Shown here in pieces: positions 8,390-8,688 of a stretch of 8,688 bases of DNA (within the stretch, counting starts at the first letter, position 1; each line of letters opens with the position of its first letter). The stretch is taken from the NCBI RefSeq assembly GCF_003334335.1, contig NZ_QOWQ01000068.1; one strand, written 5' to 3'. Made by a program: the position numbers and the translations under genes. This stretch comes from Escherichia coli (GTDB lineage: Bacteria; Pseudomonadota; Gammaproteobacteria; Enterobacterales; Enterobacteriaceae). Under the pieces are notes generated by a model. It was not told the DNA's origin. It saw only the letters and a program-made list of their open reading frames with translations, and searched no databases.

Positions 8390-8553
8390 TCACCATAACT
8401 GCTAATCATTCAAACTATTTAGCCTGTGACAGAGCCAACACGCAGTCTGTCACTGTCAGGAAAGTGGTAAAACTGCAACTCAATTACTGCAATGCCCTCG
8501 TAATTAAGTGAATTTACAATATCGTCCTGTTCGGAGGGAAGAACGCGGGATGT

Positions 8554-8688
8554 TCATTCTTCATCACTTTTAATTGATGTATATGCTCTCTTTTCTGACG
8601 TTAGTCTCCGACGGCAGGCTTCAATGACCCAGGCTGAGAAATTCCCGGACCCTTTTTGCTCAAGAGCGATGTTAATTTGTTCAATCAT
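8554..8688 (-). CDS. Small protein, probable YlcI (DUF3950)-like; ATG exactly at the window edge, so possibly truncated at the 5' end
   Basis: The minus strand from 8688 translates as MIEQINIALEQKGSGNFSAWVIEACRRRLTSEKRAYTSIKSDEE, with stop at 8554-8556. The true start may lie beyond the window. Family assignment rests on position and partial recall only. Confidence 0.45.
   Translation of the reverse strand: MIEQINIALEQKGSGNFSAWVIEACRRRLTSEKRAYTSIKSDEE

Follow-up and report, generated by a model that had tools for sequence, protein, structure and literature searches.

The window analysed here, i.e. the whole stretch of 8,688 nucleotides, is 100% identical to E. coli chromosomes over its entire length, and corresponds to the DLP12 prophage form that carries an intact porin gene. 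At its right edge lies a minus-strand open reading frame (ORF) of 44 aa (MIEQINIALEQKGSGNFSAWVIEACRRRLTSEKRAYTSIKSDEE, from the ORF listing and its translation) spanning 8554..8688, with the TGA stop at 8554-8556 and an ATG formed by the window's final three bases, 8686-8688. This ORF corresponds to the 3'-terminal 135 nt of ylcI, a protein-coding gene of 64 codons in the DLP12 prophage. The 589 bases from 8100 to 8688 are 100% identical to loci annotated as ybcW and ylcI ('YlcI/YnfO family protein'), and the annotated ylcI coding sequence of strain ACN002 (L001 6455-6649, minus strand, 195 nt) is identical to the window over the 135 nt they have in common. Window position 8688 corresponds to codon 21 of the ACN002 gene, which runs 60 nt past the window; codons 21-64 and the stop are inside, codons 1-20 are outside, and the full product reads MSTKNRTRRTTTRNIRFPNQ-MIEQ..., 64 aa. 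YlcI of E. coli K-12 (b4589, DLP12) is the same gene, 100% identical and in the same place between ybcW and nohD, the sole difference being the 20 codons cut off by the window. The window finding by itself, a known y-gene truncated at an edge, adds nothing new; ylcI is an ordinary gene, already annotated, whose role as a ribbon-helix-helix (RHH) DNA binder is a prediction. The features of this region are as follows.

8183-8389, plus strand: ybcW, 68 aa, PHROG 657 (no assigned function), the convergent neighbour
8390..8553, no strand assigned: convergent intergenic region of 164 bp, from the ybcW stop to the ylcI stop, without a canonical terminator
8423..8460, no strand assigned: imperfect hairpin without a U-tract on either strand
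8554..8688, minus strand: 3' part of ylcI, codons 21-64 and TGA (ORF listing, identity to the L001 coding sequence)
8557..8589, minus strand: C-terminal tail, residues 54-64, not conserved between phage lineages
8590..8640, minus strand: predicted helix B, residues 37-53 (AlphaFold models), with a conserved N-F-S-A-W-V-x-E/D-A-C motif
8653..8688, minus strand: in-window part, residues 21-32, of predicted helix A (residues 19-32; AlphaFold models), with a nearly invariant I25

The initial annotation had described a small gene that faces ybcW and is cut by the window, had suggested DLP12 ylcI as its identity and had allowed for an extension past the edge, all of which is borne out by the identical loci. 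Its placement of the start at the ATG 8686-8688 is in error. No stop lies just beyond 8688, the frame being open for 20 more codons; no Shine-Dalgarno-like sequence was seen on inspection of the bases before Met21; and Met21 is replaced by Leu in most diverged homologues of the family alignment. The edge ATG is therefore the internal Met21, and its position at the very end of the window is a coincidence of the cut. In front of the true ATG, a GGGG is found at -11 to -8, and an in-frame TGA is located five codons 5' without any other start codon between.

The order of genes in lambda and DLP12 is lysis genes, bor, ybcV, ybcW, ylcI, cos and Nu1/nohD, and in Stx-type phages (phage 2851, PPyecE_EH1910), which carry an unrelated packaging module, it is lysis genes, a ylcI-like gene, HNH, terS and terL, with cos, on the model of HK97-type phages, expected in the gap from HNH to terS. 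In ACN002, lambda, phage 2851 and PPyecE_EH1910 alike, ylcI is opposite to the late genes and sits between the lysis cassette or ybcW and the cos-terminase region. The ybcW-ylcI pair is listed as a convergent excludon, with overlapping transcripts, in RNA-seq of E. coli K-12 (PMC12288877), which fits the lack of an efficient terminator between the two genes. A terminator scan called none in this interval. The imperfect hairpin of the initial annotation is present exactly at 8423-8460 (core stem GTGACAGA/TCTGTCAC, outer CCT/AGG), but it is neither terminator-like nor clearly better than chance: its energy is -13.9 kcal/mol on the plus strand and -14.4 kcal/mol on the minus strand, with z-scores of -1.75 and -1.14 against shuffled sequences (13/200 and 26/200 shuffles at least as stable), and the run of T expected of an intrinsic terminator is absent after it on either strand. 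The wider ybcW-ylcI intergenic region has a folding z of about 0, and a search of Rfam at a permissive threshold returned only a chance match to a miRNA model, in the cos region.

A K-12 study reported that PdhR binds in the intergenic region from ybcV to ybcW and activates the two (PMC7660256), in which case transcription of ybcW would run into ylcI. This divergent intergenic region corresponds to about 8020-8183 of the window. The longest ORF of ybcV spans 7487-8020 on the minus strand (177 aa from a GTG), the annotated coding sequence being 136 aa (DUF1398), and its 'head protein' label (PHROG 413, lambda record) looks doubtful, as ybcV runs antisense to the late operon.

Coding status, family and spread of ylcI

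Comparison of the DLP12 copy with three Stx-phage-type copies gave a dN/dS of 0.04-0.14 over codons 1-52, at synonymous sites that are near saturation, which shows at the level of sequence that ylcI is a real protein-coding gene under purifying selection, including the 20 codons outside the window. The tails of the copies in DLP12, phage 2851, PPyecE and L008 bear no relation to one another past about residue 50. YlcI matches Pfam DUF3950 (PF13132) over residues 21-49 (model positions 1-29 of 30, E 2.9e-20), a match that is also found at E<=0.001 in 20 of 22 diverged homologues, as well as PHROG 949 (no assigned function; E 2.5e-35). Against NCBIfam NF041551 (YlcI/YnfO), whose curated cut-off is 30 bits, the full 64-aa protein scores 37.6 bits (residues 10-49), and the 44-aa window fragment falls below the cut-off with 22.3 bits. 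Proteins of the YnfO type (Qin prophage of E. coli K-12) form a cluster of 77 aa that shares 88-91% identity with YlcI across the first ~59 residues. Our search of the accessible literature returned no experiment on YlcI or YnfO and no described function for the family.

Relatives of YlcI are abundant; their absence would have spoken against the initial annotation. Of 5426 complete E. coli genomes, 4071 match the 589-bp query covering ybcW and partial ylcI at least in part, and 1046 cover at least 80% of it; tblastn located the protein in 155 records of phages, of which nearly all are lambdoid. When 1.84 billion representative proteins were scanned in full, 142 relatives were identified, many of which are error-laden lambda copies; about 20 are truly diverged (32-60% identity) and were used for alignment. 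An initial protein search had yielded mostly near-identical or frameshifted copies on ~3.5 kb contigs, useless for alignment, and it was the search of representatives that provided the diverged sequences. Within this diverged family I15, R16, F37 and V41 are invariant, and F17, I25, S38, W40, A44 and C45 are nearly so.

The phage lambda genome (NC_001416) carries the ylcI ORF with 100% DNA identity at 48109-48303 on the complement strand (L002 3110-3304), 199 bp from the right cos end, and the lambda RefSeq record holds no annotation at this place. More broadly, DLP12 from Rz to the window edge (6410-8688) is 99.65% identical to lambda 45966-48243, and the 199 bp from ylcI to cos, beyond the window, show 10 differences between the DLP12 of ACN002 (L001) and lambda. 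A lambda-wide CRISPRi essentiality screen is organized by RefSeq locus tags, and the accessible part of its table, which ends at lambdap79, has no entry for the ylcI ORF (PMC10695390); as far as this part goes, the absence of the ORF from the RefSeq annotation has meant its absence from a screen built on that annotation. The lambda name 'orf-64' was considered for ylcI and rejected, since this source gives it to lambdap73, a gene located between Q and S (PMC10695390).

Many of the ~3.5 kb contigs that appear as homologues are error-bearing copies of lambda 45,042-48,488. One of them, a 3555-bp contig (L023) of an assembly labelled Staphylococcus aureus, is 97.2% identical to lambda with 56 gaps. 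Presumably, these contigs derive from a lambda control amplicon used in nanopore sequencing, i.e. they are contamination. Their presence explains the 'YlcI' attributed to Staphylococcus and Veillonella; they also inflate the apparent family size and fill homologue lists with frameshifted variants.

Predicted fold of YlcI

Structure prediction indicates that YlcI very probably adopts a dimeric RHH fold. In the predicted structure, a basic arm (residues 1-13) is followed by a beta-strand at about residues 10-18, centred on I15-R16-F17, and by helices at residues 19-32 and 37-53, giving the beta-alpha-alpha topology of about 45 residues that is characteristic of RHH proteins. RHH proteins are obligate dimers, and for this reason two copies of the core (residues 9-52) were modelled together from a matching alignment, joined by a Gly-Ser linker. 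In the best linked model the strands are paired, with a pLDDT of 83-90 in both domains and a pTM of 0.69, and the two copies form the intertwined dimer with a two-stranded antiparallel ribbon that is expected of the fold; confident models of this kind were 2 of 5, and the artificial linker forces the copies together. A search of a viral structure library with YlcI placed tandem-RHH proteins of archaeal viruses on top, and several of the best structural neighbours of YlcI are RHH antitoxins (TacA, ParD, VapB12, CopA_SO and MazE).

Sequence searches provide weak hints in the same direction, i.e. matches to PHROG HicB-like (E 0.02) and Arc-like (E 0.19) families, and, among PDB chains, to CdbA in the RHH register (E 0.36). 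At E<=10, YlcI and its homologues match no RHH family in Pfam, DUF3950 being the only Pfam family found, and neither sequence nor profile searches gave a significant match to a PDB chain (best, ribosomal uL16 with E 0.097, then CdbA); the RHH assignment is for these reasons a prediction. The DUF3950 Pfam model is short (30 positions; residues 21-49, window 8602-8688) and describes both helices without the I15-R16-F17 strand, and this missing strand may explain the lack of a sequence-based link between the family and the RHH superfamily. The initial annotation had a weak RHH-like impression of the window ORF: the fold is backed by structure prediction, but the segment it quoted consists of the two helices only, the ribbon strand being outside the window.

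Diverged homologues in satellite-like elements

Several of the diverged homologues reside in small integrative elements with an integrase, an AlpA-like gene and a primase, some of which also carry terS and capsid genes; judged by gene content, these elements have the layout of phage satellites. The DUF3950 gene of the satellites is divergent from the replication operon, and at one locus the gene opposite it is matched to a 'transcriptional repressor' family of PHROG. Palindromic repeats stand directly upstream of the DUF3950 genes of satellites at no fewer than four loci, in two or three copies and mostly with a spacing of 20-23 bp (33 and 47 bp also occur). These repeats, and two fusion genes, are located as follows.

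L003 4592-4646: upstream repeats of a satellite DUF3950 gene
L004 575-658: upstream repeats of a satellite DUF3950 gene
L012 507-552: upstream repeats of a satellite DUF3950 gene
L008 5545-5592 and 5891-5990: upstream repeats of satellite DUF3950 genes
L008 6001-6363, plus strand, and L003 4714-5103, plus strand: fusions of an RHH part to a TerS-type domain, 120-129 aa, in satellite-like elements

The palindromes are GTGCACAAACAC (three copies, spaced by 20 and 23 bp), TGTGCGCACA (three copies), GGTGYWCATACAC (two copies) and TGGTACGTACCA (two copies), and the motif varies between satellite loci, as does strand residue 14. From their sequence and position, these palindromes look like operators, and a divergent gene combined with iterated palindromes is the classic picture of an autoregulated repressor, which supports a DNA-binding regulator for the family.

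The two fusion proteins join a YlcI-like RHH part, 47-51% identical to a prophage YlcI, to a Terminase_2 domain (Pfam E 2.7e-11). The latter matches the solved DNA-binding domain of an SF6-type small terminase (E 1.6e-4), and shares 60-64% identity with residues 1-54 of the TerS of phage 2851, an Stx phage, which make up the DNA-binding domain of that protein. These observations provide a lead that connects the DUF3950 family to phage satellites and to DNA recognition by terminase. In phage 2851, the HNH-terS gap, its presumed cos region (L014 2300-2594), contains five copies of GTTAACAT/ATGTTAAC, which may be small-terminase recognition sites and which resemble the GTT(T/A)AACAC repeats upstream of the L008 fusion gene.

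A satellite at about 90-7876 of L008, equipped with an integrase, a primase, a terS of its own and a capsid gene, adjoins a prophage late region at 8040-12160; of the three DUF3950 genes at this locus, two belong to the satellite and one to the prophage. The terS of the prophage is split into pieces of 61 aa and 89 aa. This layout looks like the 'helper-embedded PICI' arrangement that has been described (PMC10111431). Elsewhere, a diverged DUF3950 gene (P0208, 62 aa) is found about 440 bp downstream of the cdtABC cytolethal distending toxin operon (L021 3330-6189; L022), at a locus that is presumably the remnant of a lambdoid prophage late region.

Proposed role of YlcI and the alternatives

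Taken as a whole, the best-supported reading, and one we consider reasonably likely, is that ylcI of DLP12 and lambda encodes a small, sequence-specific DNA-binding regulator of the RHH, autorepressor type. DNA binding, a regulatory role and the timing of expression are inferred; that YlcI acts as a transcriptional regulator, taken on its own, is in our judgement an even call. For the family labelled DUF3950, of unknown function, the predicted structure now offers a testable role, namely that of a dimeric RHH DNA binder with R16 as a likely base-contacting residue. The residues of an RHH strand point alternately to the DNA and to the core. By analogy with characterised RHH proteins, two YlcI chains would pair their strands and insert the resulting antiparallel ribbon into the major groove of DNA. 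As I15 and F17 are hydrophobic and conserved, this alternation would turn them toward the hydrophobic core, leaving the invariant R16, together with N14 and T12, to face the bases in the groove, and residues K4, R6, R8, R9 and R13 of the basic arm may contact the DNA backbone. The orientation of ylcI, opposite to late transcription, would confine most of its expression to times when the late genes are silent, i.e. the prophage state or the early phase after infection.

Among known RHH repressors, Arc and Mnt of phage P22 and the CopG/omega-type plasmid repressors share no significant sequence similarity with YlcI; Arc and Mnt are also encoded in an immunity region, whereas ylcI is an isolated gene at the end of the chromosome, on the strand opposite to the late genes. 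TraY of the F plasmid relaxosome has two RHH repeats per chain where YlcI has one, and 9% identity to it, and a functional parallel between the two is conjecture.

Upstream of ylcI in DLP12, a single 13-bp inverted repeat is present 70-100 bp before the ATG (ATCAATTAATACG-N7-CGTCATAATTGAT, L001 6719-6751; 48373-48405 in lambda), and a consensus scan of this upstream region found no sigma-70-like promoter on the ylcI strand. The sequence upstream of the gene in DLP12 and lambda contains this one inverted repeat and the R-site repeats, without iterated operators as in the satellites, and the satellite motifs themselves are absent from the DLP12 locus. The repeats are, we assume, the terminase-binding R sites known from the lambda literature. 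Because the 199 bp between the ATG and the right end of lambda also carry packaging signals, a role of YlcI at cos is inseparable here from autoregulation.

Such a role, in which YlcI would be a cos-proximal DNA-binding accessory factor acting in packaging, termination, ejection or a conflict over terminase between helper and satellite, is the main alternative and in our view unlikely. The gene always adjoins the packaging module, whichever type of terminase this encodes: in lambda and DLP12 it lies those same 199 bp from the cos end, before Nu1/nohD, and in Stx-type phages 42 bp separate its start from that of the divergent HNH gene, beyond which come cos, terS and terL. Such adjacency may also reflect a spot at which the insertion of accessory genes is tolerated, as bor, ybcV and ybcW occupy the same stretch. 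The fusion of a YlcI-like RHH part to a TerS-like DNA-binding domain in satellites suggests that YlcI may act near cos or in helper-satellite conflict, and GTTAAC-type repeats occur both in the HNH-terS gap of phage 2851, where the place of cos is inferred, and in similar form upstream of a fusion gene, but fused domains do not show that the unfused YlcI acts at cos, and the sequence next to ylcI showed no binding motif in common with cos. Moreover, a gene antisense to the late operon is ill placed for expression during packaging.

We give a rather low probability to a broader form of the helper-satellite idea, according to which YlcI is the phage-borne member of an RHH regulator family common to lambdoid phages and PICI-like satellites, and is active in the conflict between them. 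The phage protein might then bind the same operators as its satellite counterpart, bind sites near cos, or form mixed dimers with the satellite protein, and would either keep the satellite silent in the lysogen or trigger it. If this were true, lambda would possess, at a distance of 199 bp from its right end, a functional gene for a DNA-binding protein that its annotation lacks.

An orphan antitoxin of a type II toxin-antitoxin pair is a very improbable identity for YlcI. It is brought to mind by the RHH antitoxins among the structural neighbours and by the weak HicB-like match noted above, and the N-terminal DNA-binding fold of TacA, ParD, VapB12 and CopA_SO is predicted to be the same as that of YlcI, but these antitoxins differ from it in what surrounds this fold. 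Without an adjacent toxin gene, ylcI has no co-directional neighbour at all, with convergent ybcW downstream and cos and the divergent nohD upstream, and is equally isolated in lambda and in Stx-type phages; its C-terminal tail, the part that would bind a toxin, is short and unconserved; and the PADLOC models of defence systems and antitoxins give no match to YlcI.

Returning to the autorepressor-type regulator that we favour, its ribbon strand is encoded by the codons beyond the window edge, and there is practically no room for a real product consisting of a 44-aa peptide from the ATG 8686-8688, or for an untranslated ORF of which the antisense transcript alone matters: some public automatic gene calls do start at Met21 (representatives aligned from query residue 21), and the DUF3950 model begins at this residue, but the family usually has Leu there with no Shine-Dalgarno-like sequence in front, the 44-aa fragment stays under the NCBIfam cut-off, an RHH dimer would be impossible without the strand, and purifying selection acts on codons 1-20, which hold the invariant I15 and R16, just as it does on the remainder of ylcI.
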